A program made the translations under genes and the position numbers. From Salinivirgaceae bacterium (lineage in GTDB: Bacteria > Bacteroidota > Bacteroidia > Bacteroidales > SZUA-534): a DNA stretch of 64,000 nucleotides. This document shows, one piece after another, positions 1 to 58,462 of the stretch (position 1 is its first letter; each line of letters opens with the position of its first letter). The DNA is taken from positions 7,816-71,815 of the forward strand of contig JAGCNL010000053.1 in assembly GCA_017645945.1 (NCBI GenBank), read 5' to 3'. The notes below the pieces were generated by a model that ran no database searches, was not told the DNA's origin, and saw only the letters and a program-made list of their open reading frames with translations.

Positions 1-894
1 ATAGTTGAAATAACAAGCTTTGTCATAATTCTTACCATTTTCAATTAATTGTGGGGTAAATTGACATCCATCAATCAAATAGTAATGACCTCCATTTCTA
101 CGTTGAAAGGCTATAGGTATTATATCATTACATAGCGATTGGTAAATCAATCTTGCAGCTTCCTCATTAGAAGGTGAATCTAAAGGTTCTCTAAATTCTT
201 TAAAACCGAGGTTTTCTGCTGCTTGCTTTACAAAAATAGGAAGAACGGCTGTTCCTTTTTCTGTAAAAACAGAAACTGGAATAGCTTTACAGATTTTTTC
301 CATTATTTCTCTTACAATTGTAACATCAGTATTAATTAGTGGTTCGTAATCCTCCGTTTCTTTATTTTTCCTGCAGAATCTTCCAAAGTATTTACTATTT
401 TGATTAGTTTCAACATTATAATATTTATATAACCTGTTTAATGTTGGAAATCCTTTTTTTACAGAAGGAACATCCTTGTAATAGTACAATAATTGTAAGA
501 AAGCTATGGATAAACAACCTGCAGGCCTGTTCCCGTTCCATTCATCGATTGCAACTGGTGCTGATTCCTTCTTTTTTTTCCAAAATGATGTTATATATTT
601 CATTGTGGAGTTAATAACTTTAATTGGACTTACTCCACCCATCATAACATTAAAAGCACCATCTATATACTCTATAATATTATCATCTACATTTAGAAAG
701 TCTTCTGCAATAGAAGCTGGAGGAACGATTTGAGCGACAATAGATTGGATAGCCTCTTTTCTGTCATCAATATAACTATTGAAAGGCCAGGCTTGATGAT
801 AAAACGTTTCTGTACGATTTGTACAAGACCTGCCGTCACTTGGAATTTCATCCCAAGTTCTTTCTGCTTCTTTCGTAATAGGTATTACAGCCAT
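1..894 (-). CDS. papain-fold (clan CA, C10/C39-like) cysteine peptidase domain protein; 3' end runs off the window
   Basis: Absent from the ORF track because it has no stop in the window. Manual triplet check shows the minus frame is open from ATG (892-894) to nt 1, 298 codons. Translation starts MAVIPITKEAERTWDE. It contains WNGNRPAGCLSIAFLQLLYYY (Cys codon 505-507) and NGGHYYLIDGCQ (His codon 85-87), resembling the catalytic Cys and His blocks of streptopain/C39-type peptidases. No signal peptide. AT-rich. Confidence 0.55.
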   Translation of the reverse strand, partial: MAVIPITKEAERTWDEIPSDGRSCTNRTETFYHQAWPFNSYIDDRKEAIQSIVAQIVPPASIAEDFLNVDDNIIEYIDGAFNVMMGGVSPIKVINSTMKYITSFWKKKKESAPVAIDEWNGNRPAGCLSIAFLQLLYYYKDVPSVKKGFPTLNRLYKYYNVETNQNSKYFGRFCRKNKETEDYEPLINTDVTIVREIMEKICKAIPVSVFTEKGTAVLPIFVKQAAENLGFKEFREPLDSPSNEEAARLIYQSLCNDIIPIAFQRRNGGHYYLIDGCQFTPQLIENGKNYDKACYFNY

Positions 895-2763: not shown

Positions 2764-2910
2764 GTTTAGAGTTTAGGGGGAAGTGTTTAGAGTTTAGATA
2801 GTTGCAGCGCTGCGGTAGAGACGTAGCGCGCTACGTCTGTACAGTTTGCATTCGTTCGTAATTCGCAATTCATAATTCAAAAATCTCAACCCTTACCTCT
2901 TACCCCTTAC
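2764..2910. repeat. heptad-periodic word array in the hisG-hisD spacer (21 heptad slots in one register), with two GC palindromes in the middle
   Basis: Split from 2764: gtttaga gtttagg gggaagt gtttaga gtttaga ... ttcgtaa ttcgcaa ttcataa ttcaaaa atctcaa cccttac ctcttac cccttac. The left and right word blocks share the same 7-nt register (2855-2764=91=13x7). Embedded palindromes: GCAGCGCTGC (2804-2813) and AGACGTAGCGCGCTACGTCT (2819-2838). Confidence 0.8.
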
Positions 2911-2912
2911 CG

Positions 2913-4023: not shown

Positions 4024-7005
4024 TTGCTACTTTTCAAAGTTCGTTCCCGAAACACTTTTGTTATGGATATGATTAACGACCACGAGGCTTTTGATTTGTT
4101 TTTCAAGAACAGCAACGATTTGATGCTTGTCTTGGACTCCGACTGCCATATCCTGAAAATCAACCCCACGTGTGTGAAAATCTTTGGTTATCAGCCCGAA
4201 GAGCTTATCGGGCGGCACATCATGGAGCTTGTGCACACTGATGATAAGGAGCGTGGCGAGCAGCAGATTAAGGAGATTTATAAGACAGAGGGCGTCAATT
4301 TTCCGTTCAAAAACAAGGCTTTGCACAAAGATGGCAGCACGCGCTGGCTCAGCTGGTCGTCGTGCGTCCTGGGCGGCATTTTGTATGCCACGGGTACCGA
4401 TGTGACAAGGCAGGAGGAGAGTCTGCGCAACATTGAGTACATCCGCCGCCGCTATATGAAACGCAGCGACTCGGGCATCGGCCTTTGGGAGGTCAATCTC
4501 GAAACCCGCGAATTCTCTGGCGATGAGCATGTTTATGAGATTTTCGGTTTGCCTTACCAAAGCAGCCAGACATTGCGCACGCTTGAGTTCGTGCTAACGC
4601 CCGAGGGCCGCGAGGTGGTCGTCTCGCACCTTAATAAGGTTATCTGCTCCAACATCTTCGAGAATTTCGACTGCGAGATTATCCGTCAGACCGACAAGCA
4701 GAAACGCACCATCAGTGTGACGGGAAACTTCATTTTCGACAAGGATTTCAGCGTCAAGTCGTTCTTTGGCACCATGCAGGACATCACTGAGCAGACGGAG
4801 ATTAAGCGCCAGTACGATGAGCTTTCAAAGCTTCAGCACACCATTCTCGATGCCATCGACTGCGGCGTGCTGCTGGTCAACAAGGGGCGTATCCAGTGGT
4901 TCAACAAGAAGGAGGCTTTCGGCTACACCGAAGATGATATGCGCGAACAGCGTTACGAGTTTGTTGATGTGTTCAAAGACCCCGCAATGGTTGCCAAACT
5001 GCGAGGCGACGGCTACAATCTGATGCGCATCGGCGTGACATATTCAACTGAGTTTGAGGTATATAAGAAAGACCGCACGCTGGCGTGGGTTCACGTCACG
5101 GGCAAAATGCTGTCCGACGAGAGCGTTGTCTGGACCATCACCGACATCACCGCGCAGAAGCAGGCGTCGCTGTCAATCGCCAAGAGCCACGCCCTGCTCA
5201 AGGACACCCAAAGAGCCGCCCATATTGGCAGCTGGGAGACCATCGGCAATGGCAAGTCAATCAAGCTTGACGATGTGGCCTGCCGCATTTTCGACATCAA
5301 GCGGAGCAACCACACCATGACGGTCAGCAGTCTCATGCGGCTGCTCGACCAGAAAGGGCGCGACAGTCTGCGGGCAAGCGTCAAATCGAACATTATCAAG
5401 GACGATACATTCATCAATTTCAACTGCCACATAACCACGCAGGCAGGTAACACACGGCACATATTTGTTACGGGCGACAACCTTAACTGGGGCACGGAGT
5501 CGGGGCGTATTGTCGGCATTGTTCAGGATGTTACGCGCATGGAGCAGCTTGAGCAGGAGCTGGAGGAGAAGCGAACCCGCATTGATGCCATCTATGCCAC
5601 CTCGCCAACAGCCATCGGTCTGATTCACGGTTACGACATTTTCGACTGCAACAAGGAGTTCTACAGAATTACAGGCTATCAGGCCGATGAGTTGAAGGAC
5701 AAAGGTCTGCTGAGGCTGATGTCGCCGAGCGAAATCGACCGTCTGAACCGCAAGGGCTTGCAGTCGAACGACAATGTGACTGTTCACTCGTTCGAGACCG
5801 TTTTTCTGCGCAAGACAGGCCGCAAAGTCAACGTGCTGCTGAATTTCTCAATCTTCGGACAGACCGACGGCAGCCCTCGAAGCAGCATTATATCCGTCAC
5901 CGACATCACAGCGCTCAAGATTGCCCAACAAACTAACTTTCAGCTTATTGAGTCAATCAACCAGTCGCAGAACGAGTTTATCATCTACGACAGCAACTGG
6001 ATTGCCGTCTATGCCAACGACAAGGTGTTTATGGCGCATAACTATGAATCAAAAGACATTATCGGCCAGCGTATCCGAGAATTTGATTTAGATAACAAGC
6101 AGCAAAACATTCTGTATCAAAAGCTTATGGAAACTGGCAGTGTCAACGGCGAATTCCAGGTGCGTAACGGCAACATGATAATATGGTATTCGGTCCGCAT
6201 ATCGCCAATCTACGACAAGAACAAGGTGATTACGGGTTATGTGTCAGTGAAAGAGGACATTACAACCCGTAAGAACATTGAGATGGAGCTGATGAAGGCA
6301 CTGAGCAAGGCCGAGCAGTCGGACCGCATGAAGGAGACGCTGCTGCAAAACCTGTCGCATGAGATACGCACGCCGCTCAACGCCATTTCGGGCTTTGCCG
6401 AAATCATCAGCGAGAGCTCTGGCCTGCCTGACGACACATTGAAATCATACACAAATATTATAAGCAACAGTTGCAACCAGCTCATGGGCATTGTGTCTGA
6501 CATGCTTGTGATGTCTGATATCCAGCTTGGGCGCACATCGGTTGCCGTCACACGCATCGTTCCTGACGAGATTCTCCGCAGGCTGCACCGAATCTTCCTT
6601 CAGCAGGCTCAGGCCAAAAACATCACGCTGGAATATGTCGAGCCAGCTGACAGCAGCGTGGTCATCTACACCGATGAGACCAAGCTTGTGCAGATTGTTT
6701 CGAATTTGCTCACAAACGCCATAAAATTCACTGATAAGGGAGGAGTGTGGTTCGGCTATTCAGCCAACGACAAGCAAATCGAATTTTACGTCAGAGACAC
6801 GGGAATCGGCATTTCGCAGGAGGACATGCGCCAGATTTTCGACCGCTTCTTCCAAGTCACCTCCAACAAGGCCAGCAGCTACGGCACTGGACTCGGACTT
6901 GCCATCTCGCAGTCGTTTGCCAAGATGCTTCACGGCGAGCTTAATGTGGAGTCGGAGCTTGGAAAGGGCACTGTTTTCCATCTGATAATCCCTATAAAAG
7001 TCTAA
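4024..7005 (+). CDS. multi-PAS sensor histidine kinase
   Basis: 993 aa ORF with several PAS-like repeats. H-box LSHEIRTPLNAISGF and ATPase motifs (DTGIGI, GTGLGLAI). The true start may be the internal Met at 4063 (MDMINDHEAF). Confidence 0.85.
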   Translation: MLLFKVRSRNTFVMDMINDHEAFDLFFKNSNDLMLVLDSDCHILKINPTCVKIFGYQPEELIGRHIMELVHTDDKERGEQQIKEIYKTEGVNFPFKNKALHKDGSTRWLSWSSCVLGGILYATGTDVTRQEESLRNIEYIRRRYMKRSDSGIGLWEVNLETREFSGDEHVYEIFGLPYQSSQTLRTLEFVLTPEGREVVVSHLNKVICSNIFENFDCEIIRQTDKQKRTISVTGNFIFDKDFSVKSFFGTMQDITEQTEIKRQYDELSKLQHTILDAIDCGVLLVNKGRIQWFNKKEAFGYTEDDMREQRYEFVDVFKDPAMVAKLRGDGYNLMRIGVTYSTEFEVYKKDRTLAWVHVTGKMLSDESVVWTITDITAQKQASLSIAKSHALLKDTQRAAHIGSWETIGNGKSIKLDDVACRIFDIKRSNHTMTVSSLMRLLDQKGRDSLRASVKSNIIKDDTFINFNCHITTQAGNTRHIFVTGDNLNWGTESGRIVGIVQDVTRMEQLEQELEEKRTRIDAIYATSPTAIGLIHGYDIFDCNKEFYRITGYQADELKDKGLLRLMSPSEIDRLNRKGLQSNDNVTVHSFETVFLRKTGRKVNVLLNFSIFGQTDGSPRSSIISVTDITALKIAQQTNFQLIESINQSQNEFIIYDSNWIAVYANDKVFMAHNYESKDIIGQRIREFDLDNKQQNILYQKLMETGSVNGEFQVRNGNMIIWYSVRISPIYDKNKVITGYVSVKEDITTRKNIEMELMKALSKAEQSDRMKETLLQNLSHEIRTPLNAISGFAEIISESSGLPDDTLKSYTNIISNSCNQLMGIVSDMLVMSDIQLGRTSVAVTRIVPDEILRRLHRIFLQQAQAKNITLEYVEPADSSVVIYTDETKLVQIVSNLLTNAIKFTDKGGVWFGYSANDKQIEFYVRDTGIGISQEDMRQIFDRFFQVTSNKASSYGTGLGLAISQSFAKMLHGELNVESELGKGTVFHLIIPIKV

Positions 7006-10099: not shown

Positions 10100-11362
10100 A
10101 TGGCAGAGAAAATCACAATCAGCAATGGTAAACTCAACGTTCCTAACAACCCCGTAATCCCCTTCATTGAGGGCGACGGAATCGGCCGCGACATCTGGCC
10201 TGCATCGCAAAAAGTAATGGACGCGGCTGTGGAGAAATACTACGGCGGCAAGCGCAAAATTGAGTGGAAAGAGGTTCTGGCTGGCGAGAAAGCCTTCAAC
10301 GCCACTGGCAGTTGGCTTCCCGACGAGACTCTGGACGCTTTCCGCGAATATCTGGTAGGCATCAAGGGCCCGCTGACAACCCCGATTGGCGGCGGCATCC
10401 GCTCGCTCAACGTGGCTCTGCGTCAGACTCTCGACCTTTACGTATGCCTGCGCCCCGTGCAGTATTACGAGGGCACGCCGTCGCCTGTGAAGCGCCCCGA
10501 GTTGGTTGATATGTGCATCTTCCGCGAGAACACCGAGGATATTTACGCTGGCATTGAATATATGAACGGCACGCCTGAAAACTTGAAAATCAAGAAGTTC
10601 CTGATTGAGGAAATGGGCGTTAAGAAGATTCGCTTCCCCGAGTCGTCGAGCATCGGCATCAAGCCTGTGAGTCAGGAAGGCACGGAGCGCCTTGTCCGCG
10701 CGGCCATTCAGTACGCCATCGACCACAAGAAACCGTCGGTTACGTTTGTGCACAAGGGCAACATTATGAAGTTCACCGAGGGCGCGTTCAAGATTTGGGG
10801 CTACGAACTGGCCGAGCGCGAGTTCGCCGACAAGGTTTACACCTGGAACCAATGGGAGGCTCGCAAGAAGGAAGTTGGCGAGGAGACAGCCAACGCCGAA
10901 ATGGACGCAGCCGCAAAATCGGGCAAAATCATCATAAAAGATTGTATTGCAGACGCTTTCCTGCAGCAAATTCTGACCCGTCCCGCCGAGTATTCGGTCA
11001 TCGCCACTCTGAACCTTAACGGCGATTACATTTCTGACGCTCTGGCAGCGTGCGTGGGAGGTATCGGCATCGCACCTGGCGCCAACATCAACTATCAGAG
11101 CGGTTTCGCCATTTTCGAGGCTACACACGGAACAGCGCCGAAATACACTGGCAAGAACGTGTCGAACCCTGGCTCGTTGCTGCTTTCGGGCGCAATGATG
11201 CTCGACTATATGGGCTGGACCGAGGCCGCCGACGGCATCCGCAAGGCTATGAGCAAAACCATCTCGCAGAAAACCGTAACCTACGACCTGCACCGAATGA
11301 TGGAAGGCGCCACAAAACTCTCGACATCGGAGTTCGCTGACGCCTTAATCAAGAATCTTTAG
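10100..11362 (+). CDS. icd: NADP-dependent isocitrate dehydrogenase
   Basis: The ORF track starts at a TTG at 10091. The ATG at 10100 ([12 protein letters not shown]) is more likely. Typical Icd sequence ([23 protein letters not shown]). Confidence 0.93.
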
Positions 11363-11505
11363 TTAGGATTTAGGATTTAGGAATTAGGAGGTAGGATTTA
11401 GGGGGATTGAATTACGAATTATGAATTACGACTACGGTCTGTTGTCTGAAGTCCGAAGTCCAAAAATCCGATTCACCGATTCAACAAAGGAATAAACGAT
11501 TAAAC
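11363..11505. repeat. heptad-periodic word array (icd-citrate synthase spacer)
   Basis: Starts immediately after the icd stop: ttaggat ttaggat ttaggaa ttaggag gtaggat ttagggg gattgaa ttacgaa ttatgaa ttacgac tacggtc tgttgtc tgaagtc cgaagtc. These 14 heptads are in register (11363-11460). Then ccgattca ccgattca and A-rich aaac words. Confidence 0.85.
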
Positions 11506-12956: not shown

Positions 12957-13647
12957 ATTTAGGTAAACTGATTGAAGCGGCTGACAATCAGGGGAGTATT
13001 TAATTCAGGAAATGGTGCCAGCATTAGCAACGATGCGTTAAGCGATTCAATTCTGTTGATTGTAATCATACAATGCAGCTGTCAATTCATTTTTCAGCTG
13101 AAATGTAGAATTTTCTTTGTGTGCCATAAATGCATGAGCCATTGGTCAGAATGCGGCGCGTAAATCGTCTGAGATTTTGATTTTTCGCATACATCAAGAC
13201 CATTGTACGATTCAGGCGCAAAATTCGAGGATTTCGGTGATTTGTGTGAGAAACGTATTTCCATAGAATTATCGTGCTCAATATGCGCCAGAATTCAATA
13301 TTTGCGAATTGTTCCGGTAATCTGTCCAGATATTTGATTCTTAGCGCGTTTTTTTGAATTTTTTCAGAGTTTTTTTGCTGGTGGGGAGTATTTTCATATA
13401 TCCTATTTAACATAATATAAATTATCAGACAAACATAATAATCCGAAAATTACCACGGAATTCATGAAAAACACGGAAATTTCATAATTACCACGGAACG
13501 CACGGAAAACACGGAAATTTTAAATTGTGGCTAACCGATTCTTGCTGATTTATGCCGAGATTACTGTTCAACCCAATCGGCGGTTTTGAGATTTTCAATG
13601 CGCGAAAAATATACTCAATTAGCGAACCGGCGCAAAAGATTAACGGC

Positions 13648-13719: not shown

Positions 13720-14292
13720 TTAGTCTTTTCGTCCGCCCCAATCAATCGAAACGCCGAAAGCGATTGACTGATAGTTGGTTATCTCGGTTTCCCTGTTGTG
13801 TACACGTTTGTCCTGCAATAGATTGTAGCCGCACCACATGTTGAAGTGAGCCAGACGGATTCCAACAGCCGGCAGCGCGTACAGGCCGTTGACATCGCCC
13901 ACAGCATAACCCAGTTTCAGGTCGGCAAACGGAGCGTATTTGCCCATCGGCATTTCGTATCTTGCATTGAAGAAGAACGGCATTGCAAAGTCGAAATCAT
14001 CGTTGCTGTAGCACTCATAGGTATTTGAGTTATCGTCGTAAGTATTGTAATAGAAGTCATCGTTGTTGGTCACAAACTGCATTGAGGCGCCCATGCCCAA
14101 GTACAGATTGTTCGATTGTATGCCGTGAACGGTTGTGATTGCAAACCGGTCGTACGGATGAGAACTTATGCCGGAGAAGATGTTCATGCCGGCAAAACCG
14201 CGGTAACCCTCGGTTGGTGCTGCAGTAAAATCGCCTGCAAACAAGCTCAGGCTCATTGAAACTGCGAAGATTGATAACATTAACTTTTTCAT
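13720..14292 (-). CDS. small outer-membrane beta-barrel protein (porin-family-like)
   Basis: 190 aa ORF with signal peptide MKKLMLSIFAVSMSLSLFA. Alternating aromatic/Gly-rich strands. C-terminal portion IAFGVSIDWGGRKD. Function inferred from composition only. Confidence 0.5.
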   Translation of the reverse strand: MKKLMLSIFAVSMSLSLFAGDFTAAPTEGYRGFAGMNIFSGISSHPYDRFAITTVHGIQSNNLYLGMGASMQFVTNNDDFYYNTYDDNSNTYECYSNDDFDFAMPFFFNARYEMPMGKYAPFADLKLGYAVGDVNGLYALPAVGIRLAHFNMWCGYNLLQDKRVHNRETEITNYQSIAFGVSIDWGGRKD

Positions 14293-18065: not shown

Positions 18066-18311
18066 TTAAAGCATTGCTTCAAGTGCGGCAACGGCAGAGG
18101 CTATGTCAGAAGAAAATGTGGAGTGCGAAAGAAGGAAATCTGTGCGGCCGTTGGCAAGCTGCGCATAAAGCTTGCTGTTCATGCTTTCCACATACGAGGC
18201 AATGGCATATTCTATCTCCTCCTTCTGCTGCGGGCTGTTGGAATACTGATAAACACGCCACTTCTGATGGAAGAAACAATAGGCCGATTCGATGCTGTGT
18301 GGGGAAAACAT
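18066..18311 (-). CDS. hypothetical small protein (81 aa)
   Basis: The track ORF starts at 18347, but its first 12 codons are read out of the heptad array. The probable start is MFSPHSIESAY (ATG 18309-18311). No family recognised. Confidence 0.45.
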   Translation of the reverse strand: MFSPHSIESAYCFFHQKWRVYQYSNSPQQKEEIEYAIASYVESMNSKLYAQLANGRTDFLLSHSTFSSDIASAVAALEAML

Positions 18312-18320
18312 TGTGAAGGC

Positions 18321-18530
18321 AGAATTTAGAATTAAGGCATTAGGCACTGGGCATTAGGCAATAGGTGTTTGGTATTGGGTGTTGGGTGTTGGGGAATTAC
18401 GAATTATGAATTACGAATTACGAATTACGAATTATTGCTTTTTTTGTCTGTTGTCTGTTGTCCGTAGTCTTAAGTCCTAAGTCTCAAGTCTTAAATCCTA
18501 AATCCTAAATCCTAAATATTAAATATTAAA
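18321..18530. repeat. heptad-periodic word array, 30 consecutive heptads in one register
   Basis: Verified base by base: agaattt agaatta aggcatt aggcact gggcatt aggcaat aggtgtt tggtatt gggtgtt gggtgtt ggggaat tacgaat tatgaat tacgaat tacgaat tacgaat tattgct ttttttg tctgttg tctgttg tccgtag tcttaag tcctaag tctcaag tcttaaa tcctaaa tcctaaa tcctaaa tattaaa tattaaa. The array fills the whole spacer and overlaps the stop codon of the 18526-18711 gene. Confidence 0.9.
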
Positions 18531-18711
18531 TAAACCTTTTGTGCTCTTCGGAGTATTGGAAACCTTCGGCGGCGAGGCGTTGCTCAAGCTCGTTGCGGTT
18601 GATGTTGAAATGGAAGCAAATCTCGTCGAGCGTGTCGAATTCCTCATCGCGCAGCAGGAAATTGATGGCCGACACAAGCATTGGTGTGTCGTTTAATGGC
18701 AAATGGTCCAT
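18526..18711 (-). CDS. small conserved protein, DUF4250-like
   Basis: 61 aa ORF, MDHLPLNDTPMLVSAINFLLRDEEFDTLDEICFHFNINRNELEQRLAAEGFQY. It resembles the short DUF4250 family as I remember it. Not verified. Confidence 0.5.
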   Translation of the reverse strand: MDHLPLNDTPMLVSAINFLLRDEEFDTLDEICFHFNINRNELEQRLAAEGFQYSEEHKRFI

Positions 18712-18816
18712 ATTGTTGATTTTTCGCGCAAAAGTAGCCTTTTTCTTGTTGTGTAGGCAAACAAAAACTGCCGAACAAAATGCCCGGCAGTTTCCTACAA
18801 ATGTATCACTTTAAAA

Positions 18817-19419
18817 CTATTTCTTCTGATTTGCCTCATATTCAGCGTTCAAGCCTTCAATGATGTCGTTTGTGATGTTGTACTTCTCGTTGGCGTACCA
18901 CATGCTGCCGCCGATGGTGCGTGTCAGCACGAATTTGTAGCGCTCCGGAGTGTTGTACTTGGTTACGTAAGCTGAAATCTTCTCGAACAGCTGGTTGTTC
19001 ATGTTCTGCTGCTCAACAGCCAACTGCTGCGAGTACTCGTCCTGAAGGCGCTGGAACTCCTGCTGGCGGACAAGCAGACGCTGCTGCTCTTCTTCGGCGC
19101 GCTGAGTGGTCAGGAAGATGCCCTTCTGAACCTTGTCCTGGAAAGTCTCGATGTCTTTTTGAAGTGCTTTTGCATCGCGCTCAAGCTTGCTCTGCATATT
19201 GGCGTACTTCTTCATGATGGCATCGTTCAGCTCAATCGAGAGTTTGTAGTTAACAAGGATTGAATCGACGTCGATAAATGCGATGTCGCACGCTCCGACA
19301 GCTGTCGAATCGTTGGCCGCAACGGCAGCCGGTGCCTGTGTCTGGTTTGCACAACTTGTTGAAAGGAAGCCCATTGCAACTACTGCAATTGCACAGGCAA
19401 AAATTGAATTAGTCTTCAT
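18817..19419 (-). CDS. OmpH/Skp-like periplasmic chaperone lipoprotein
   Basis: Probable start MKTNSIFACAIAVVAMGFLSTSC (lipobox). Q/E/K-rich coiled-coil body typical of the OmpH family. Confidence 0.6.
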   Translation of the reverse strand: MKTNSIFACAIAVVAMGFLSTSCANQTQAPAAVAANDSTAVGACDIAFIDVDSILVNYKLSIELNDAIMKKYANMQSKLERDAKALQKDIETFQDKVQKGIFLTTQRAEEEQQRLLVRQQEFQRLQDEYSQQLAVEQQNMNNQLFEKISAYVTKYNTPERYKFVLTRTIGGSMWYANEKYNITNDIIEGLNAEYEANQKK

Positions 19420-19505: not shown

Positions 19506-19584
19506 GGTGAATCGGTGAATCGTTTAATGTTTAACGGGTTTAACCACTTAATTCTGAATTCTGATTTCTAAATTCTGAATTTTC
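19506..19584. repeat. word array (two 8-mers, then nine heptads in register)
   Basis: ggtgaatc ggtgaatc, then gtttaat gtttaac gggttta accactt aattctg aattctg atttcta aattctg aattttc. The array ends at the cstA stop codon. Confidence 0.8.
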
Positions 19585-21000
19585 CTACTTCTTCTTGGTT
19601 ATATACCGAATGGCGATGAACGACAGCACAACTGTGAACACAAGGCCGATTGAGTAGCCCCACACGGGTGGCAGCGAGAATCCTTCGGGCGCCAATAATA
19701 TATATGTGCTGCAAACCGATGTCATAAAGATGGCAGGAATGAGCGTTATGATATAACGACGTCCGTGGCGGTACAGATAGGCTGTAATAGCCCACAGAGT
19801 GAAGATTGACAACGTTTGGTTGAACCATCCGAAGTAGCGCCAAAGCACGGCAAAATCGATGAGCATAAGCACTGCTGAAATGGCAAAAATTGGCACCGAA
19901 ACCGCCAGACGTTTTGGTATGGTGTTCTGCGGAAAATGCAGAAAATCAGCAGTTATCAGTCGTGCAGAGCGCAGAGCGGTGTCGCCCGATGTGATTGGCG
20001 CGGCCACAACACCCAGAATGGCCAGAATGGCACCAATGCGGCCCATCCAGTCGTTGCAGATGAAGTTGACAATGTTAGCCGGATTGCCGTTCATTTTGAG
20101 TGCAAGTCCTTCCGATGTACCGCCAGCGTATTTGATTGCGGCGGCAGCCCAAATCAAAGCCACAAAACCTTCTGTAATCATTGCGCCATAGAAGGCGATG
20201 CGGCCATAGCGCTCGTTTTTCAGGCATCGGGCCATCATCGGGCTTTGCGTGGCGTGGAATCCGCTGATTGCACCGCAGGCAATGGTTATGAACAGGAATG
20301 GGAAGATACTCAATCCTTTAGGATGATGAGTATGGAATGCTTCAGTTATCTCAGGCATCGAACCGCTGTGGGTGAAAATGCCAATGAACACGCCTGCCGC
20401 CATAATGAGCAGCGCCAGTCCGAACACGGGATAAATCTTGCCGATGAGCGTATCGATAGGCAGCAGAGTTGCCATCATATAATAGCAGAAGATGATGACG
20501 CACCAGAAGGTCTTGCTGCCGATGAAACCCGCTGTCGGTGTCAGTCCTTCGAGCAGACCTGCAGGCGTGGTTACAAACACGGCACCCACCATTACCATCA
20601 GCAAAAGCGAGAACACGCGCATAACCTGACGCACACCCAAGCCCAGCTCATCGCCCACAATCTCGGGCAGCGACGCGCCGTCTTTGCGCAGCGAAATCAT
20701 TCCCGACATAAAATCGTGAACCGCGCCGCCGAAAATGCAGCCCAGCACAATCCACAAGTAAGCCGCAGGGCCAAACAAAATGCCGCCGATGGCACCGAAG
20801 ATTGGTCCCGTGCCGGCGATATTCAAAAACTGAATCAGAAACACTTTCCAAAGCGGCATCGGAATGTAATCGACACCGTCCTGACGAGTGTAAGCTGGTG
20901 TCTGGCGGTTGGCATCAACCCCTAACACCTTCTCAACAAATGCACCATAGAATAAATAGCCCAAAATAAGGGCAAGAACTGAAACAATGAATGTTATCAT
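19585..21000 (-). CDS. cstA: carbon starvation protein A family transporter
   Basis: 471 aa polytopic membrane protein. The N-terminal region through FLNIAGTGPIFGAIGGILFGP is typical of CstA. Confidence 0.85.
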   Translation of the reverse strand: MITFIVSVLALILGYLFYGAFVEKVLGVDANRQTPAYTRQDGVDYIPMPLWKVFLIQFLNIAGTGPIFGAIGGILFGPAAYLWIVLGCIFGGAVHDFMSGMISLRKDGASLPEIVGDELGLGVRQVMRVFSLLLMVMVGAVFVTTPAGLLEGLTPTAGFIGSKTFWCVIIFCYYMMATLLPIDTLIGKIYPVFGLALLIMAAGVFIGIFTHSGSMPEITEAFHTHHPKGLSIFPFLFITIACGAISGFHATQSPMMARCLKNERYGRIAFYGAMITEGFVALIWAAAAIKYAGGTSEGLALKMNGNPANIVNFICNDWMGRIGAILAILGVVAAPITSGDTALRSARLITADFLHFPQNTIPKRLAVSVPIFAISAVLMLIDFAVLWRYFGWFNQTLSIFTLWAITAYLYRHGRRYIITLIPAIFMTSVCSTYILLAPEGFSLPPVWGYSIGLVFTVVLSFIAIRYITKKK

Positions 21001-21039
21001 AATTGTATTTTTTAATCGATGTGCGAAGGTATATAATTT

Positions 21040-21262
21040 GGTGAATAGGTGAATTGATTTTTTTGCTTGGATGGACTGCAGACTATAGACAACCGACTGT
21101 AGACAACAGACAACAGACTGCAGACAAAGCTAATGCCCAACCCCCAACACCTAACACCCAACACCTATTGCCTAATGCCTTAATTCTGAATTCTAACTTC
21201 TAAATTCTGAATTCAGATTTCTAACTCCTAACTCCTAACTCCTAACTCCTAAATCTACCTAA
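21040..21262. repeat. heptad-periodic word array, at least 26 heptads in one register (21074-21255)
   Basis: ggtgaata ggtgaatt, then gactgca gactata gacaacc gactgta gacaaca gacaaca gactgca gacaaag ctaatgc ccaaccc ccaacac ctaacac ccaacac ctattgc ctaatgc cttaatt ctgaatt ctaactt ctaaatt ctgaatt cagattt ctaactc x4 ctaaatc. The words are reverse complements of those at 18321-18530. Confidence 0.9.
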
Positions 21263-21274
21263 CACCCCTCCGTG

Positions 21275-22930
21275 CTACTCCTCTTCCACGCCCCATTCAA
21301 CCAGAATGTTGTCAGGGTTCCAATCGTCGCTCCAGCCGTCGGGTTGCGACATGGCACGGCAGCGGATTGTCAGGCTGTCGCATCCGGCAAACGCCTCATC
21401 TTCAATATTCTGAACCGATTCGGGGATGGTGACCATTTCAAGGCTGCTGCAGTCGGAGAACGCACATTCGTCGATTCTCACAACTGAGTTTGGAATATCA
21501 ACCGATGTCAGGCTGCTGCAATCCTCAAACGCGCTGCCGCCAATGCTCTTGACCGATTCGGGAATGGTCACTGCAGTCAGGTCGCGGCAACCGCGGAACG
21601 CATTGCTGTAAACAAAACGGCAGCCTTCGCTAATCTCGCAGGCAGTTATGTCGTCAGATTTGGCCTTAATCAGGCACAAATACGGATTTTTGGCGTTTCC
21701 TAAATATAATGCGTTGTCGAACTCATTGAATTTCAGGCATGTGCAATCCTCAAACGATTCCCAGCCGATGCTTGCTACCGAATCAGGAATCACAGCCGAC
21801 TCCATTTTGCGGCAGCTCTTGAACGCCCAATTGTCGATGCATGCAACCGAATCAGGCACTACCAGCGACAACAAGCTACCACAACCCGCAAATGCGCTTT
21901 TCTCGATGTCGGAAACCGAATCGGGAATGGTGACAGCCGTCAGGCCGTAGCAACCGCGGAACGCGCTGCTGCCAATGGTTTTGACGGTTTTCGGAATGCT
22001 ATAGGCGCCCATCTTTCCTGCCGGATAGCATATCAGGCGCGTTTTTTCCTTGTCGAACAGAACACCCTCGTCCGAAGTGTAGTTGGCATTCTTGCGCTCA
22101 ACGTTTATGGCTTTCAGAAGGCTGCAGACGCGGAACGCACCGCCGCCGATTGATGTCACTGAGTCGGGTATGTTGACTGATTTCAGCTGTGCGCAACCCT
22201 CAAACGCATAATCGCCAATGGTTGTCACTGAGCCTGGGATAGCAACCGATGTGAGGCCGCTGCCTGCAAATGCTTCGTTTCCAATGCTTTTGACAGATTT
22301 TCCGATGGTTGTCGATTGCAAACTACGGCAGTTCGAGAACACTCTGTGTCCGATGGCTGAGACCGAATCGGGAATAACAACCGACTCCAGGCTGCTGCAA
22401 TTGACAAACGCGCCATCGTCGATAACAGTCACAGTATTAGGAATATCGACCGATGTAAGGCCACGGCAGCCGTAGAAGGCATTGTCGCCGATGCTGGTGA
22501 CTGAACGCGGAATTTTTATCGATGTGAGGCCGATGCAGCACGAAAACATGTTGCTGCCGATGTGTTTGACTGAACTGGAGATGGTTACCTGCGTCAGTCC
22601 GCTGCAATTCTGAAACGCATAATCGCCAATTTTCAGAACTGAATCGGGAATCGTGACCGAAGTCAGGCTGCTGCAGCCCATGAACGCGCCATCGCCAATT
22701 TTGCGCACCGAACGCGGAATGGTGACCGATTTGAGACCGACGCAGTTCTCAAAAGCGCTGTCGCCGATGCTCGTCACCGCATATCCGACACCGTCCACAC
22801 AAAAATCATCAGGAATGGCAACCTCCTCATCTTCACCGTTATAACGGGTTATGGTCACTTCATGGTTAGCTTTGTCGGTGATTTCAAAAATCAATCCCTC
22901 TTCAGTGTTTTTGATTGAACAGGTTCCCAT
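21275..22930 (-). CDS. BspA-type leucine-rich repeat protein
   Basis: 551 aa ORF with about 20 tandem ~23-aa repeats of the form IPDSVTSIGDxAFxxCxxLxSV. No N-terminal signal peptide (MGTCSIKNTEEG). Confidence 0.8.
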   Translation of the reverse strand: MGTCSIKNTEEGLIFEITDKANHEVTITRYNGEDEEVAIPDDFCVDGVGYAVTSIGDSAFENCVGLKSVTIPRSVRKIGDGAFMGCSSLTSVTIPDSVLKIGDYAFQNCSGLTQVTISSSVKHIGSNMFSCCIGLTSIKIPRSVTSIGDNAFYGCRGLTSVDIPNTVTVIDDGAFVNCSSLESVVIPDSVSAIGHRVFSNCRSLQSTTIGKSVKSIGNEAFAGSGLTSVAIPGSVTTIGDYAFEGCAQLKSVNIPDSVTSIGGGAFRVCSLLKAINVERKNANYTSDEGVLFDKEKTRLICYPAGKMGAYSIPKTVKTIGSSAFRGCYGLTAVTIPDSVSDIEKSAFAGCGSLLSLVVPDSVACIDNWAFKSCRKMESAVIPDSVASIGWESFEDCTCLKFNEFDNALYLGNAKNPYLCLIKAKSDDITACEISEGCRFVYSNAFRGCRDLTAVTIPESVKSIGGSAFEDCSSLTSVDIPNSVVRIDECAFSDCSSLEMVTIPESVQNIEDEAFAGCDSLTIRCRAMSQPDGWSDDWNPDNILVEWGVEEE

Positions 22931-29339: not shown

Positions 29340-29344
29340 TGATA

Positions 29345-29442
29345 GTAGGATTTAGAAGTTAGGATTTATGAGTTGGAAGTTAGTAATTAGTAGTAATCTG
29401 CGATTAAATCTTAATTCCTACATCCTAAATCCTAAATATCTT
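29345..29442. repeat. heptad-periodic word array whose two halves are reverse complements
   Basis: gtaggat ttagaag ttaggat ttatgag ttggaag ttagtaa ttagtag taatctg cgattaa atcttaa ttcctac atcctaa atcctaa atatctt. All 14 heptads are in one register. TTAGGAT on the left and ATCCTAA on the right are reverse complements. Confidence 0.85.
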
Positions 29443-34010: not shown

Positions 34011-35876
34011 ATGAACTACCTGCAAGCCGAAAACATCGCCAAATCGTACGGCGACCTTGTGCTTTACAGCAACATAAGTTTGAGCGTCGAACGTGAGCAG
34101 CACGTGGCCATCATTGCCAACAATGGTGCAGGAAAGACTTCGCTGCTGCGGATTTTGGCTGGCGCCGACACTCCCGACAGCGGCAGTGTCACTATTCGCA
34201 ACGACCTGCGGCTGGGCTATCTTGAGCAAAGTCCCAAGCTTAACCCGGAACTTACTGTCATTGAGGAAGTTTTCGAATCGTCGGATGTGACGCTGCAAAC
34301 CATCAAAGAGTATGAGATGGCTTGCCTCGACACTAATGCCGAACGGCTGGCCAACGCCACAAGTGCGATGGACGCTTCCAAAGCCTGGAACTATGAGGCT
34401 CGCATCAAACAGATTCTCTCACAGCTGAATATCAACAATTTTGAGCAGAAAGTCGGGCAACTGTCTGGCGGACAGAAAAAGCGCCTTGCGCTGGCAAAAA
34501 CGTTGATCGACGACCCTGACATTCTGATTCTCGACGAGCCAACGAACCACTTGGACCTGAATATGATAGAGTGGCTCGAAGCGTTCCTTAACTCATCGAA
34601 ATCGACATTGATAATGGTCACTCACGACCGTTATTTTCTCGACCGCGTGTGCGACATCATTTACGAAATCGACGACAAGCAAATATTCAAATATCGCGGC
34701 AACTACTCTTACTTCCTGGCCAAACGCGAAGAGCGTATCTACAATCAGAACAGCGAGATAGAGAAAGCCCGCCAACTCTACAAAAAGGAACTTGACTGGA
34801 TTCGGCGAATGCCGCAAGCGCGCGGAACAAAGGCCAAATACCGCATCGACGCATTCGAAGACATCAAGGCAACAGCCTTCAAAAGCACCAAAAGCGAGTC
34901 AATGCAAATCGACATTAAAGGTGCACGGTTAGGCACAAAAATCATCGACCTTTTCAGCATCGACAAGCGGTTTGGCGACAAGGTGCTCCTCGACGATTTT
35001 ACCTATCAGTTCCGTCGCGGTGAGAAGATTGGCGTGGTTGGCTCGAATGGCGCAGGTAAGACCACGCTGCTGAACATCATCACTGGCAACGAGCCTTGCG
35101 ACCGCGGCCGAATTGAAATCGGCACAACCATCAAAATCGGCTACTATAGGCAGGAAGAAGTGTCGTTCGACGAGAACAAGCGCGTGATTGAAGTGATTCA
35201 GGATGTGGCCGAAGACATTGCCGTTGGCGAAGGCACAAGGCTGTCGCCCACGCAGTTTCTGAACTATTTCCTGTTTCCGCATCAGATGCACTACGCCTAC
35301 GTGAGCAAGTTGAGCGGCGGCGAGCGCAAACGTCTTTATCTGATGACGGTGCTGATGCGCAACCCAAATTTCCTCATTCTCGATGAGCCTACCAACGACC
35401 TTGATATTGTGACACTTAACGTGTTGGAAGATTATCTGTCGAAGTACGACGGCTGCGTGCTGATTGTGTCGCACGACCGCTTTTTTATGGACAAGGTGGT
35501 TGACCATCTGTTTGTGTTTGAAGGAGATGGAAAGATTAAGGACTATCCTGGCAACTACACTCAATACCGCGACTGGAAAAACAGTCAGGCGAAAGCCGAA
35601 ACGGCCGCCGCCAAGCCCGAGCAATCGCAGCAGAAGCCGCGCGAGCGCGCCGACGCCAAACGCCGAATGACCTTCAAGGAGAAGAAGGAATTTGAGCAGC
35701 TAGAGGCTGAAATAGAGCAACTTGAGACCGAAAAAAGCGAGATTGAAGCTGCATTGTCGGGTGGTGAGAGCGACGCAAAGCGAATCACCGAACTCTCAAC
35801 CCGATTCGACGAAGTGAGCCGCCTTCTCGATGAAAAAAGTGACAGGTGGATTGAGTTGAGCGAGATTGAGAGTTAG
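34011..35876 (+). CDS. ABC-F family ATPase (Uup/YheS-like)
   Basis: Two ABC cassettes (ANNGAGKTS / LSGGQKKR / ILILDEPTNHLD and GSNGAGKTT / LSGGERKR / FLILDEPTNDLD), with a charged coiled-coil C-terminus and no TM domain. Probable start MNYLQAENIAKSYG at 34011. Confidence 0.9.
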   Translation: MNYLQAENIAKSYGDLVLYSNISLSVEREQHVAIIANNGAGKTSLLRILAGADTPDSGSVTIRNDLRLGYLEQSPKLNPELTVIEEVFESSDVTLQTIKEYEMACLDTNAERLANATSAMDASKAWNYEARIKQILSQLNINNFEQKVGQLSGGQKKRLALAKTLIDDPDILILDEPTNHLDLNMIEWLEAFLNSSKSTLIMVTHDRYFLDRVCDIIYEIDDKQIFKYRGNYSYFLAKREERIYNQNSEIEKARQLYKKELDWIRRMPQARGTKAKYRIDAFEDIKATAFKSTKSESMQIDIKGARLGTKIIDLFSIDKRFGDKVLLDDFTYQFRRGEKIGVVGSNGAGKTTLLNIITGNEPCDRGRIEIGTTIKIGYYRQEEVSFDENKRVIEVIQDVAEDIAVGEGTRLSPTQFLNYFLFPHQMHYAYVSKLSGGERKRLYLMTVLMRNPNFLILDEPTNDLDIVTLNVLEDYLSKYDGCVLIVSHDRFFMDKVVDHLFVFEGDGKIKDYPGNYTQYRDWKNSQAKAETAAAKPEQSQQKPRERADAKRRMTFKEKKEFEQLEAEIEQLETEKSEIEAALSGGESDAKRITELSTRFDEVSRLLDEKSDRWIELSEIES

Positions 35877-35995
35877 GTGTTAGGCACTAGGCATTAGGCA
35901 TTAGAAAATTACGAATTATGAATTACGAATTACGATTAACCAATTCACCGATTATCCAAAATTCTGTAGTCTGTTGTCCATAGTCTGAAGTCCCC
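35877..35995. repeat. heptad-periodic word array (17 heptads in register)
   Basis: gtgttag gcactag gcattag gcattag aaaatta cgaatta tgaatta cgaatta cgattaa ccaattc accgatt atccaaa attctgt agtctgt tgtccat agtctga agtcccc. Starts directly after the ABC-F stop (agTTAG). Confidence 0.85.
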
Positions 35996-40683: not shown

Positions 40684-40884
40684 TACAATATAAATGTTTA
40701 ATTATTAACTATTAAAAGCAAAACCGCAAAAACTATCGGCGCAAGCCCCGACTGCAATGCATGCTCTGCAAACGAGTGCAAATATAAAGGTTTGTTCCAA
40801 AAATCAGCCGATTGTAACCGTTTTTCGTCATAAAATTATTTACCCAATGGTAAATTGCAGATAACCAAAGGATTAATATTTTAT

Positions 40885-40975
40885 ATTCAGAATTTAGAAT
40901 GTAGAATTCAGAATAAAAATAGAATTTTAACATGATCAACTTGAAATCCAACCAATCCCCAAATACCTATTGCCT
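40885..40975. repeat. heptad-periodic word array in a divergent intergenic region
   Basis: attcaga atttaga atgtaga attcaga ataaaaa tagaatt ttaacat gatcaac ttgaaat ccaacca atcccca aatacct attgcct. The vocabulary overlaps with 21179-21220 and 21130-21178. Confidence 0.7.
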
Positions 40976-41029
40976 AAAGCCCGTCATCAAACTTTTCTCT
41001 TGTCAAATCCGTTTGTTTTGTTTTAGTTC

Positions 41030-56996: not shown

Positions 56997-58271
56997 ATGA
57001 ATAACTTAGGTCTGAAGATTCGGCTTATTGCAATGAACCTGATGATATACGCCGTTTGGGGCGCGTATCTGAGTTCGCTCGGTATCTATTTAGGCAATAT
57101 CGGTATGGGCACAAGCATTGGCGCCTTTTTCGCCGTGCAGGGCATTGTGTCGCTCTTTATGCCAGCACTGATGGGCATTGTGGCCGACAAATGGATTCCT
57201 GCGCAACGGTTGCTTGGTATGTGCCAGGGACTGGCCGCAATCTTTATGGCTTTGGCCGGACTGATGGGAATGCGTTACGGCGCTGATGTCACTTTTGCTC
57301 AGATATTTCCGTTCTATGCCGCCAGCGTTGCGTTCTTCATGCCGACAGTTGCACTGGGTATCTCGGTGTCGTACAATGCGTTGGAGCGCGGCGGACTCGA
57401 CACCATGAGCGCCTACCCGCCCATTCGTGTTTTCGGTACCATCGGTTTCATTGTGTCGATGTGGATTGTGGATTTGACTGATTTCAAGTCGGATTACCGT
57501 CAGTTGTTCATTTCTGCGGCATGGTCGCTTGTGCTGGCCGTGTACGCTTTCACGCTGCCAAATTGCCCCACAAGTGGCGGCAAACGCTCAGCGTCGATAG
57601 TTGAAGCGCTCGGGCTGCGGGCGTTCACGCTCTTCGGCAACCGCCAGATGCGGCAGTTCTTCATCTTCTCGTTTATGCTTGGAATGTGCCTTCAGGTGAC
57701 GTTCGGTTTTGCGGGCACTTTTATGAGCGACTTCGGCCAAAATCCCGACTATGCGGACGCCTTCGCAGTTCGTCACAACATAATGTTGAGCTCGCTCTCG
57801 CAGGTTTCCGAAACGCTTTGCATTCTTCTTATTCCTTTCTTTTTGAAGCGGTTAGGTATTAAGAAGGTGATGCTTATTTCGATGCTGGCGTGGGTTTGCC
57901 GCTTCGGATTCTTCGGTTTGGGTGACCCCGAAGGCGGCGTTTGGCTTTTCGTCCTTTCGATGATTGTTTACGGTGTTGCGTTCGACTTTTTCAACATCAG
58001 CGGCTCGCTGTTTGTGGACCAAAACACCACGGATGACATCCGATCAAGCGCGCAGGGCGTGTTCATGATGATGACCAATGGTCTCGGTGCAACGGTTGGC
58101 TCGCTGCTTTCGCAAATGGTGGTTAACAAATTCGTTTACAACCGATTGGGCGAACCATCGTTCGATATGATGCAAGGCTGGGCAATGGCTTGGTACGTCT
58201 TTGCCGCTTTCGCATTGGTGATGGCCATTGCGTTTGCTATCATCTTCAAATACAAACACGTAAGGAGTTAG
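56997..58271 (+). CDS. nupG: nucleoside:H+ symporter (NupG/XapB family MFS transporter)
   Basis: 424 aa, 12-TM-like protein. The N-terminus LKIRLIAMNLMIYAVWGAYLSSLGIYL is typical of the NupG family. Confidence 0.75.
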   Translation: MNNLGLKIRLIAMNLMIYAVWGAYLSSLGIYLGNIGMGTSIGAFFAVQGIVSLFMPALMGIVADKWIPAQRLLGMCQGLAAIFMALAGLMGMRYGADVTFAQIFPFYAASVAFFMPTVALGISVSYNALERGGLDTMSAYPPIRVFGTIGFIVSMWIVDLTDFKSDYRQLFISAAWSLVLAVYAFTLPNCPTSGGKRSASIVEALGLRAFTLFGNRQMRQFFIFSFMLGMCLQVTFGFAGTFMSDFGQNPDYADAFAVRHNIMLSSLSQVSETLCILLIPFFLKRLGIKKVMLISMLAWVCRFGFFGLGDPEGGVWLFVLSMIVYGVAFDFFNISGSLFVDQNTTDDIRSSAQGVFMMMTNGLGATVGSLLSQMVVNKFVYNRLGEPSFDMMQGWAMAWYVFAAFALVMAIAFAIIFKYKHVRS

Positions 58272-58462
58272 GATTTAGGAGTTAGAAATTGAGGAAGTGG
58301 TAAGGCATAAGTAATTGGATGGTTTTGAATTAAACTTGTTATCCCGATAGCTATCGGGGCCGTAAAACTTTAAACGAAACGATAAACTTCTAAACTGCGA
58401 AGTGACTAAACTTAAACTTTAAATACTAAACTCTAAACATCTCAACACTAAACGTTTAAAAT
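58267..58462. repeat. word array with a central 16-nt palindrome (two heptad blocks in different registers)
   Basis: The left block incorporates the nupG stop: gttagga tttagga gttagaa attgagg aagtggt aaggcat aagtaat. Centre: CCCGATAGCTATCGGG (58343-58358). Right block: gactaaa cttaaac tttaaat actaaac tctaaac atctcaa cactaaa cgtttaa, running into the next ATG. Confidence 0.8.

Follow-up and report, generated by a model that had tools for sequence, protein, structure and literature searches.

In a 64-kb stretch of DNA from a Bacteroidales bacterium (below, the window), the spacer between the genes for a DUF4250 protein and a small protein of 81 aa (p81) is occupied by a tract of 7-nt units at positions 18321-18530. 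We found this tract to be a real, fast-evolving compound heptanucleotide microsatellite, which belongs to the known class of intergenic tandem heptamers. It changes mainly through the gain or loss of whole 7-nt units, with single bases changing at a junction between its two arms; its perfect register over 210 nt is incidental and a property of the window's allele type only.

Tract structure and periodicity

Parsed word by word, positions 18321-18530 yield 30 contiguous heptads with zero indels (210 nt), and this exact parse bears out the initial annotation, including the word families listed there. The self-identity of the tract is 0.764 at lag 7 and 0.658, 0.561 and 0.50 at lags 14, 21 and 28, compared with 0.17-0.36 at any lag that 7 does not divide; in the flanks, where period 7 scores 0.22, the signal is absent. 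Neighbouring heptads differ by a mean of 1.66 bases versus 4.33 over all pairs, a value as low as which was reached in none of 10,000 permutations of the heptad order. Tandem Repeats Finder (TRF) recovered these blocks as well. The longest perfect runs have three units (TACGAAT, TCCTAAA), three to four at most.

On the plus strand, the tract is a compound array in a single register that begins with two AGAATT(T/A) units (18321-18334; TAATTCT AAATTCT on the minus, mRNA-sense strand, 9 nt before the p81 ATG), a block that has two to four units in other alleles. It continues with four units of the AGGCATT family (18335-18362), four of the GGGTGTT family followed by the junction word GGGGAAT (18363-18397) and five of the TACGAAT family (18398-18432). 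A non-repeat, A-rich junction of 15 nt, TTATTGCTTTTTTTG (18432-18446; CAAAAAAAGCAATAA on the sense strand), separates this arm from the next; in the heptad parse, TATTGCT and TTTTTTG stand here, between the TACGAAT family and the first TCTGTTG. The stop-proximal arm (18447-18530, plus strand) consists of two TCTGTTG, one TCCGTAG, seven TC(C/T)TAA(G/A) and two TATTAAA units, which read TTTAATA, TTTAGGA and so on in the sense direction; it takes in the DUF4250 stop codon and is heavily substituted among alleles.

At this end, the last heptad (18524-18530) holds the TAA stop of DUF4250 (18526-18528) and 2 nt of its last sense codon; at the other, the tract starts 9 nt from the p81 ATG (18311). 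The spacer between the two genes measures 214 nt in the window, and the tract fills essentially all of its untranslated part. The open reading frame (ORF) at 18066-18347 (93 aa, GTG start) is an over-extension, given that gene callers and the homologues in two related loci, L083 and L084, use the ATG at 18311 (81 aa); the 12-codon N-terminal extension had thus rightly been called spurious.

Two structural proposals for the 7-nt spacing were rejected. It had been pointed out that three heptads equal 21 bp, or two helical turns, and self-identity falls monotonically from lag 7 to lag 28 with no excess at lag 21. On geometric grounds, identical bends placed every 7 bp would turn by about 240 degrees each and cancel over three units, which speaks against curvature.

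Strain alleles of the tract

Conspecific contigs were obtained by exact-protein look-ups with p81 and with OmpH, and their alleles were cut at conserved anchors and compared block by block. This comparison replaced naive pairwise alignment of orthologous arrays, which proved too noisy (of 162 gaps, only 23 were divisible by 7, with peaks at 7, 8 and 14). The conspecific flanks lie about 1% from those of the window (8-17 of 894 nt and 5-8 of 650 nt differ), with no indels upstream, against 8-15% substitutions plus 16-63 nt of gaps among the spacers. Five allele types were distinguished by spacer length: 214 nt in the window, 230 nt in loci L181/L184, 185 nt in L182, 151 nt in L180 and 207 nt in L002.

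The stop-proximal arm measures 82 nt in the window, 89 nt in L181/L184, 40 nt in L182, 36 nt in L180 and 89 nt in L002, that is, 5, 5, 5, 1 and 5 modulo 7, L180 being the exception. The ATTCRTA block has 37 nt in the window, L181/L184 and L182 and 30 nt in L180 and L002; the CCCC..CCTAATGCCTTA block, which takes the GGGTGTT and AGGCATT blocks together, has 62 nt and 55 nt in the same alleles, respectively. Lengths are therefore congruent modulo 7 in 14 of the 15 block-by-allele cells (three repeat blocks, five alleles). Because repeat-block lengths differ by multiples of 7, growth and shrinkage by whole units, as put forward in the initial annotation, is supported with the one exception of 36 nt.

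The junction CAAAAAAAGCAATAA follows another rule. It has 15 nt in the window and in L180, 16 nt in L181/L184 and L002, and 14 nt in L182, so the two halves keep one register in only two allele types and are displaced by ±1 in the other three (L002, L181/L184 and L182). The expectation that strains would differ by multiples of 7 thus applied within the blocks and failed at the junction, and selection on 7-nt spacing across the entire tract, which had been offered as a second explanation of the register, finds no support. Among the alleles, the DUF4250 stop switches from TAA to TAG together with the first heptad, and units change in one arm without matching changes in the other.

Two other samples, assembled independently (L163/L177 and L164/L178), have the identical 214-nt spacer, and the arrays at 58272-58462 and 21001-21274 were likewise identical in other samples. 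An assembly artefact was thereby ruled out, and the arrays are heritable rather than noise. For strain alleles of arrays other than the tract, exact-protein look-ups with CstA and a ROK kinase returned identical spacers only.

In the sister species represented by L083 (DUF4250 92% identical), the orthologous spacer has 90 nt and is almost aperiodic, with a lag-7 identity of 0.37. It reads GACNACN, AATTC, AACACC/AATACC/TAATCCC, which is the word order of the tract with one or two copies of each word. This low-copy version of the tract's vocabulary, in an unchanged order, points to expansion in place. In L084 (DUF4250 82% identical), an array of five GGGAATT units comes after the stop codon.

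Relation to known heptanucleotide repeats

The assignment to heptanucleotide long simple sequence repeats rests on head-to-tail units beyond chance, intergenic occurrence at many loci and whole-unit polymorphism. In many prokaryotes, such units have been described as outnumbering all other long simple repeats, with polymerase slippage as the proposed origin (Mrazek et al. 2007, as summarised in PMC4679880 and PMC4692102). Among the periodic repeats found between genes in a survey of 7,006 genomes, tandem heptamers were the most frequent, their function being left "with no clear clue" (Mori et al. 2019, PMC6344855). The arrays described here resemble this class in their intergenic 7-nt tandem units at many loci, in unit-step variation between strains and in slippage as a proposed origin. 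They differ in being denser (about 1.2% of 64 kb), in being mosaics, each drawn from five to eight related word families whose order recurs, and in running from G-rich to C-rich along transcription; their host, a rumen Bacteroidales genus, lies outside the earlier surveys. Our literature search returned no paper on such arrays in rumen Bacteroidales.

Among the closest described systems are the TAACTGA repeats of Beggiatoaceae, Cyanobacteria and five Bacteroidetes, which show 7-nt indels between strains (MacGregor 2015, PMC4679880); spacers of Elizabethkingia, Gramella and Aequorivita mix several different heptamers (PMC4679880). Shared features are the position between genes, often by start codons, the 7-nt strain indels, the mixture of heptamers and contig breaks inside arrays. 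However, TAACTGA has no match on either strand of the window, the word set is another one, and arrays of the window start, in addition, at the stop codon of the preceding gene or within it.

The GGGAATC arrays of Xanthomonas and the GGGGA(T/C)T arrays of Nostoc are intergenic, and related genomes carry them in differing lengths and sequences (Rehm et al. 2015, PMC4692102). With these and with the short tandemly repeated repetitive (STRR) sequences of cyanobacteria, the present arrays share dispersed intergenic heptamers, variation in length and sequence, and inverted pairs here and there. As single junction words, the window contains GGGGAAT and GGGGATT, and L084 has its five GGGAATT units. 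In contrast, the window contains no tandem copy of the STRR1-3 units (CCCCAGT, TTGGTCA, CAACAGT), of GGGAATC or of GGGGATT, nor a canonical G-quadruplex motif (G3+N1-7 x4) anywhere, and most of its words are not G-rich; the STRR hosts are heterocystous cyanobacteria, and the window host belongs to the Bacteroidales.

Upstream of hmw1A and hmw2A in Haemophilus influenzae, phase-variable heptads differ in unit number between strains, which provides a precedent for expression graded by unit number (PMC8262952, PMC12721329). The likeness is in 7-nt units upstream of a gene and in unit numbers that vary between strains. The H. influenzae repeats are long perfect runs of a single unit at a few surface-protein genes, while the window units are degenerate (no more than three or four identical ones in a row) and their arrays genome-wide.

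Dispersed intergenic mosaics with a recurring motif order are also formed by repetitive extragenic palindromes (REP) and their composites, bacterial interspersed mosaic elements (BIME), mostly between co-directional genes after stop codons, with units that are palindromic hairpins of about 35-40 nt. The arrays share the dispersed mosaic and the recurring order with REP/BIME. Their units are instead tandem heptads, and neither the tract nor most array spacers fold significantly.

The array family in the window

Presented at first as a flagship, the tract in fact belongs to a family with 10 or more arrays in the window and is the longest among them. A sliding scan of the window gave 10 period-7 arrays with 758 nt in total (about 1.2% of 64 kb), and a more sensitive setting raised the count to 12. 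At other periods the window held no array (5, 6, 9 and 10) or one each (8 and 11), and 20 shuffles of the window gave none. All 12 arrays are intergenic, although 82% of the window is coding (18% non-coding), and they adjoin housekeeping genes of unrelated function. Their common vocabulary comprises TTAGGAx, AGAATTy, AGGCATT, GGGTGTT, TACGAAT, TCTGTTG/TCYNAAG, and CTAAACT or CGATTCAC; the words are one or two substitutions apart and tend to recur in a similar order from array to array.

An array upstream of the carbon-starvation gene CstA (21074-21262, minus strand) is paralogous to the tract and made up of TTAGGAG, AGAATTy, AGGCATT, GGGTGTT and TTGTCTG; the two share a 44-nt segment, 91% identical and inverted, that involves the AGGCATT block. 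With the array at 35865-35993 (plus strand; AGGTGTT/AGGCATT, TACGAAT and GTAGTCTGTTGTCC) the tract has one segment of 31 nt in common at 90% and another of 29 nt at 100%, the latter being its TACGAAT block against 35907-35935. A further segment of 31 nt is common to two arrays at 93.5% identity.

After the CstA stop, AGAATTy heptads pass into CGATTCAC octamers (19506-19586, minus strand), and at 11353-11483 (plus strand) TTAGGAT, GAATTAC and TCTGTTG/TCCGAAG precede CCGATTCA octamers. Two arrays (GGTAAGG.., GAATTAT.. and CTAAACT) surround a central palindrome at 2764-2911 (minus strand). A TTTAGGA arm and a complementary TCCTAAA arm make up the array at 29346-29440 (minus strand), in the only window spacer with a significant hairpin. 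A divergent spacer carries an AGAATTy array (40872-40920, plus strand) and then a CCTATTGCCTAAAGCCC segment at about 40960-40990. At 58255-58453 (plus strand), a TTAGGAG arm overlaps the stop codon and a CTAAACT arm precedes the next start; this array is identical in four other samples.

Several regularities accompany these arrays. At 11360-11362, 35874-35876, 58269-58271 and 18526-18528, the stop codon of the upstream gene is built into the opening heptads (TTAGGAx or TTTAATA). A period-8 module, (CGATTCAC)n, regularly comes after heptad arrays, in the window at 11468-11483 and 19506-19522 and in L008, L009, L011 and L019 at about 5560-5600; it is followed by an A-run and then by the next promoter. 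Since this module varies in 8-nt steps between species, the step size is specific to the block and not universally 7. In L171 (1992-2316), the orthologue of window 29340-29441, one strain has a spacer of 312 nt versus about 102 nt, ordered as stop codon, GGGTGTT-type arm, 66-aa ORF, complementary AACACCC-type arm and next start, i.e. inverted heptad arms around an insert. A repeat of another kind, with periods of 38 and 18-20 and built on CACGGAA, occupies 13448-13520 in the spacer that separates gene 13087-13413 from gene 13720-14292. Upstream of CstA, the gene at 21275-22930 codes for a leucine-rich-repeat protein of the BspA type (PF13306, E 2e-127), in which internal repeats are strong.

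Host and wider distribution

The neighbouring CstA gene places the window among metagenome-assembled genomes (MAGs) of uncultured ruminant-gut Bacteroidales, labelled "Salinivirgaceae bacterium" at NCBI. Loci whose CstA is 96-99% identical have 160-410 nt of arrays per 10 kb, and those at 83% or below have almost none; the array family is confined to one ruminant-gut Bacteroidales genus. Several contigs terminate within arrays.

Heptads as such reach further. Scanned at periods 4 to 12, 940 kb of other Bacteroidales loci gave 31 arrays of period 7 and at most seven of any other, at a density about seven times lower and with short, AT-rich units beside start or stop codons. In human-gut Bacteroidales (L087-L146, DUF4250 68-70% identical), short runs of ATTATAA, ATTGTAA and AACATTT stand directly before starts or after stops around DUF4250, and heptads are therefore a habit of the order, with words specific to each lineage.

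Exact pattern searches of IMG/VR matched contigs with GC contents from 22% to 68%. Three tandem copies of GAATTAY gave more than 119 loci, of TTAGGCAYT 19 and of GGGTGTT 18, and two scrambled controls gave 49 and 47. A universal heptad vocabulary, or its horizontal transfer, was rejected in view of the controls: tandem AT-rich heptads of almost any word are common, and words shared with distant genomes are thus weak evidence of relatedness. Five unrelated contigs (L193, L197, L258, L239 and L201, GC 0.34-0.68) have heptad arrays in inverted pairs, which fold into long and nearly perfect hairpins (z -5 to -10), among them TAGGCAG/CTGCCTA, GAATTAC/GTAATTC and TGAGTTA/ACTCATA. The GC-rich L193, L197 and L258 use words that also occur in the window, and a T-run often comes after the hairpin in L193 and L197.

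Flanking genes and transcription context

Upstream of the tract in the direction of transcription lies the gene for the DUF4250 protein (18526-18711, minus strand; 61 aa; Pfam PF14056, E 2e-17) and downstream that for p81 (18066-18311, minus strand), which belongs to no Pfam family and was delimited by gene callers and homologues. A p81 homologue also comes after DUF4250 in L083 and L084. Beyond DUF4250 lies OmpH (18817-19419, minus strand), followed by an intrinsic terminator, AAACTGCCGGGCATTTTGTTCGGCAGTTTTTG, at 18765-18797 (minus strand; hairpin and T-run, dG about -20), a hairpin that has a weak partial match to SorX in Rfam. About 18 nt upstream of the DUF4250 ATG, counted from the end of the box, is TACTTTTG (18729-18736, minus strand), which we take to be a Bacteroidetes-type -7 promoter box by the motif definition TAnnTTTG.

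Neither strand of the 214-nt spacer contains a TAnnTTTG box, such as DUF4250 has upstream, and a scan of 18312-18525 found neither a sigma-70 promoter nor a hairpin terminator. From the -7 box upstream of DUF4250, the spacer free of box, promoter and terminator, and the conserved DUF4250-p81 order, we infer that the two genes are bicistronic, with the array inside their mRNA; the OmpH terminator would then mark the start of this transcription unit. The surroundings of the unit vary. In L002 (1-1396, against window 18753), another gene precedes DUF4250, the break lying some 40 nt ahead of the DUF4250 ATG, and in other species of the genus (L003-L011) DUF4250-p81 is not downstream of OmpH, with gene order shifting beside arrays.

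Origin and possible function

We consider it fairly probable that the tract is tolerated, fast-evolving filler inside a bicistronic transcript. Replication slippage or unequal exchange would add and remove whole 7-nt units, and the observed pattern is as expected from such a process. Point mutations would create unit variants, local duplication may spread each of them into a short block, and together the two would give the gradual drift between word families. Transcribed within the DUF4250-p81 mRNA, the tract would have no sequence-specific function of its own, its sense strand acting as filler with stops in all frames, unstructured, and G-poor and C-rich beside the p81 start. Changes in length could tune p81 expression through distance or Rho-dependent polarity, without being required.

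Four observations that pure neutral slippage does not predict weigh against this explanation, one of them being strand polarity relative to transcription. In array spacers, the 60 nt after stops average 15.8 G and 4.0 C on the sense strand, with G exceeding C in all eight (11.9 and 10.8 in spacers without arrays), and the 60 nt before starts average 3.2 G and 14.5 C, all four being C-rich (8.6 and 10.4 without arrays). Likewise, on the top strand the left half of the spacer exceeds the right half in GC skew in nine of 10 array spacers, with a mean difference of 0.66, compared with 18 of 25 and 0.14 for non-array spacers. Further spacers of related loci mostly share the polarity, with L004 as the clear exception, and the tract follows it although its "canonical" words are antisense: TTTAGGA-type words come after the stop and AACACCC/AATGCCT before the p81 start. 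Moreover, one order of word families recurs across loci and species. Arrays occupy eight of 32 co-directional, two of five divergent and none of five convergent spacers, numbers that are small; all three frames are closed within 45 nt of the stop in eight of eight array regions versus seven of 28 regions without arrays, because a stop triplet repeated every 7 nt visits each frame, 7 being coprime to 3. In addition, that the tract is transcribed or affects p81 in any way is itself an inference.

Strand polarity and the recurring word order are not predicted by purely neutral slippage and are not explained by it. Because of these two features, a regulatory, Rho-related or insulator role and an origin from decayed hairpins are live alternatives.

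The tract could be cis-regulatory, offering 7-nt-spaced sites on DNA or mRNA to a lineage-specific protein or acting as a unit-number rheostat for the downstream gene, which we regard as possible and rather unlikely. Polarity relative to transcription, the recurrence of word order between loci and the restriction of arrays to spacers preceding a start codon would fit such a role. So would the composition beside the p81 ATG, where the sense strand has 35 C and 8 G over 107 nt, since C-rich, G-poor sequence is typical of a Rho loading site. Precedents are the heptanucleotide repeats of H. influenzae hmw1A/hmw2A and the TTTTGAT heptads of Vibrio cholerae, (PMC8262952, PMC12721329, bioRxiv 10.1101/2021.05.14.444153). 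However, words, unit numbers and spacer length (151-230 nt) vary among strains with near-identical flanks, the sister species manages with 90 almost aperiodic nt, no perfect run exceeds three to four units, and the neighbours are housekeeping genes with no function in common.

Another reading, to which we give still less credence, treats the arrays as distinct dyad-polar intergenic elements rather than passive products of slippage, with a G-rich arm inward from the upstream gene and a C-rich arm of complementary type by the downstream gene. The 7-nt step and the word order might then reflect a dedicated process or function, e.g. expandable hairpin or Rho-loading insulators that separate transcription units, or a lineage-specific factor reading TTAGGNN-type heptads; such elements would appear as near-perfect heptad hairpins in GC-rich genomes and as the dominant intergenic filler in this Bacteroidales genus. 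The inverted arrays from IMG/VR echo the dyad polarity of the window, though the tract itself does not fold.

The tract might also be a decayed inverted heptad array, whose G-rich arm and complementary C-rich arm once formed a long RNA hairpin or a DNA cruciform that served as a terminator or a REP-like RNA stabiliser. In favour of such an origin are the outermost 21 nt of the tract, which are 81% complementary (18324-18344 against 18497-18517), the dyad polarity from G to C, the significant folding of spacer 29340-29441 (z -3.1 and -4.1), and the inverted pairs on IMG/VR contigs with z of -5 to -10, which in L193, L197 and L258 have words in common with the window and in L193 and L197 are accompanied by T-runs. 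Against it, the tract spacer folds no better than dinucleotide shuffles on either strand (z -0.32 and -0.17), seven of the eight array spacers folded lie above z -1.7, no U-tract comes after the tract and the terminator scan was negative, unit changes in one arm are unmatched in the other, and the tract lies within a probable operon. We find a decayed array improbable, and a present-day structured RNA or REP/BIME hairpin was ruled out for the tract by the folding result; in Rfam, only tRNAs passed the gathering threshold in the window, and the tract had no match at E values up to 1.

Very improbable, finally, is a mobile mosaic element resembling a MITE (a miniature transposable element with inverted repeats) or a BIME, inserted into many spacers and then diversified: multi-word segments that recur at different loci (44 nt at 91%, 31 nt at 90% and 93.5%, 29 nt at 100%), a module order common to many arrays, imperfect terminal inverted repeats (21 nt, 81%) and gene order changes beside arrays would suit it, but no defined ends or target-site duplications were seen and the boundaries slide with unit number, the L083 spacer already holds the tract words in place at low copy, so that there is no empty site, no transposase is linked to the arrays, and short common segments are expected among low-complexity arrays of small vocabulary.

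Implications

With five spacer lengths on nearly identical backgrounds, the tract locus is a natural allele series, in which it can be seen directly that blocks change in quanta of 7 nt and that the global register is not kept. In practical terms, the arrays break metagenome contigs and produce false N-terminal ORF extensions, and they could serve as strain markers. For the biology of this Bacteroidales genus, the polarity and the recurring word order provide handles for testing two possible roles of the repeats, the insulation of transcription units and the tuning of expression.

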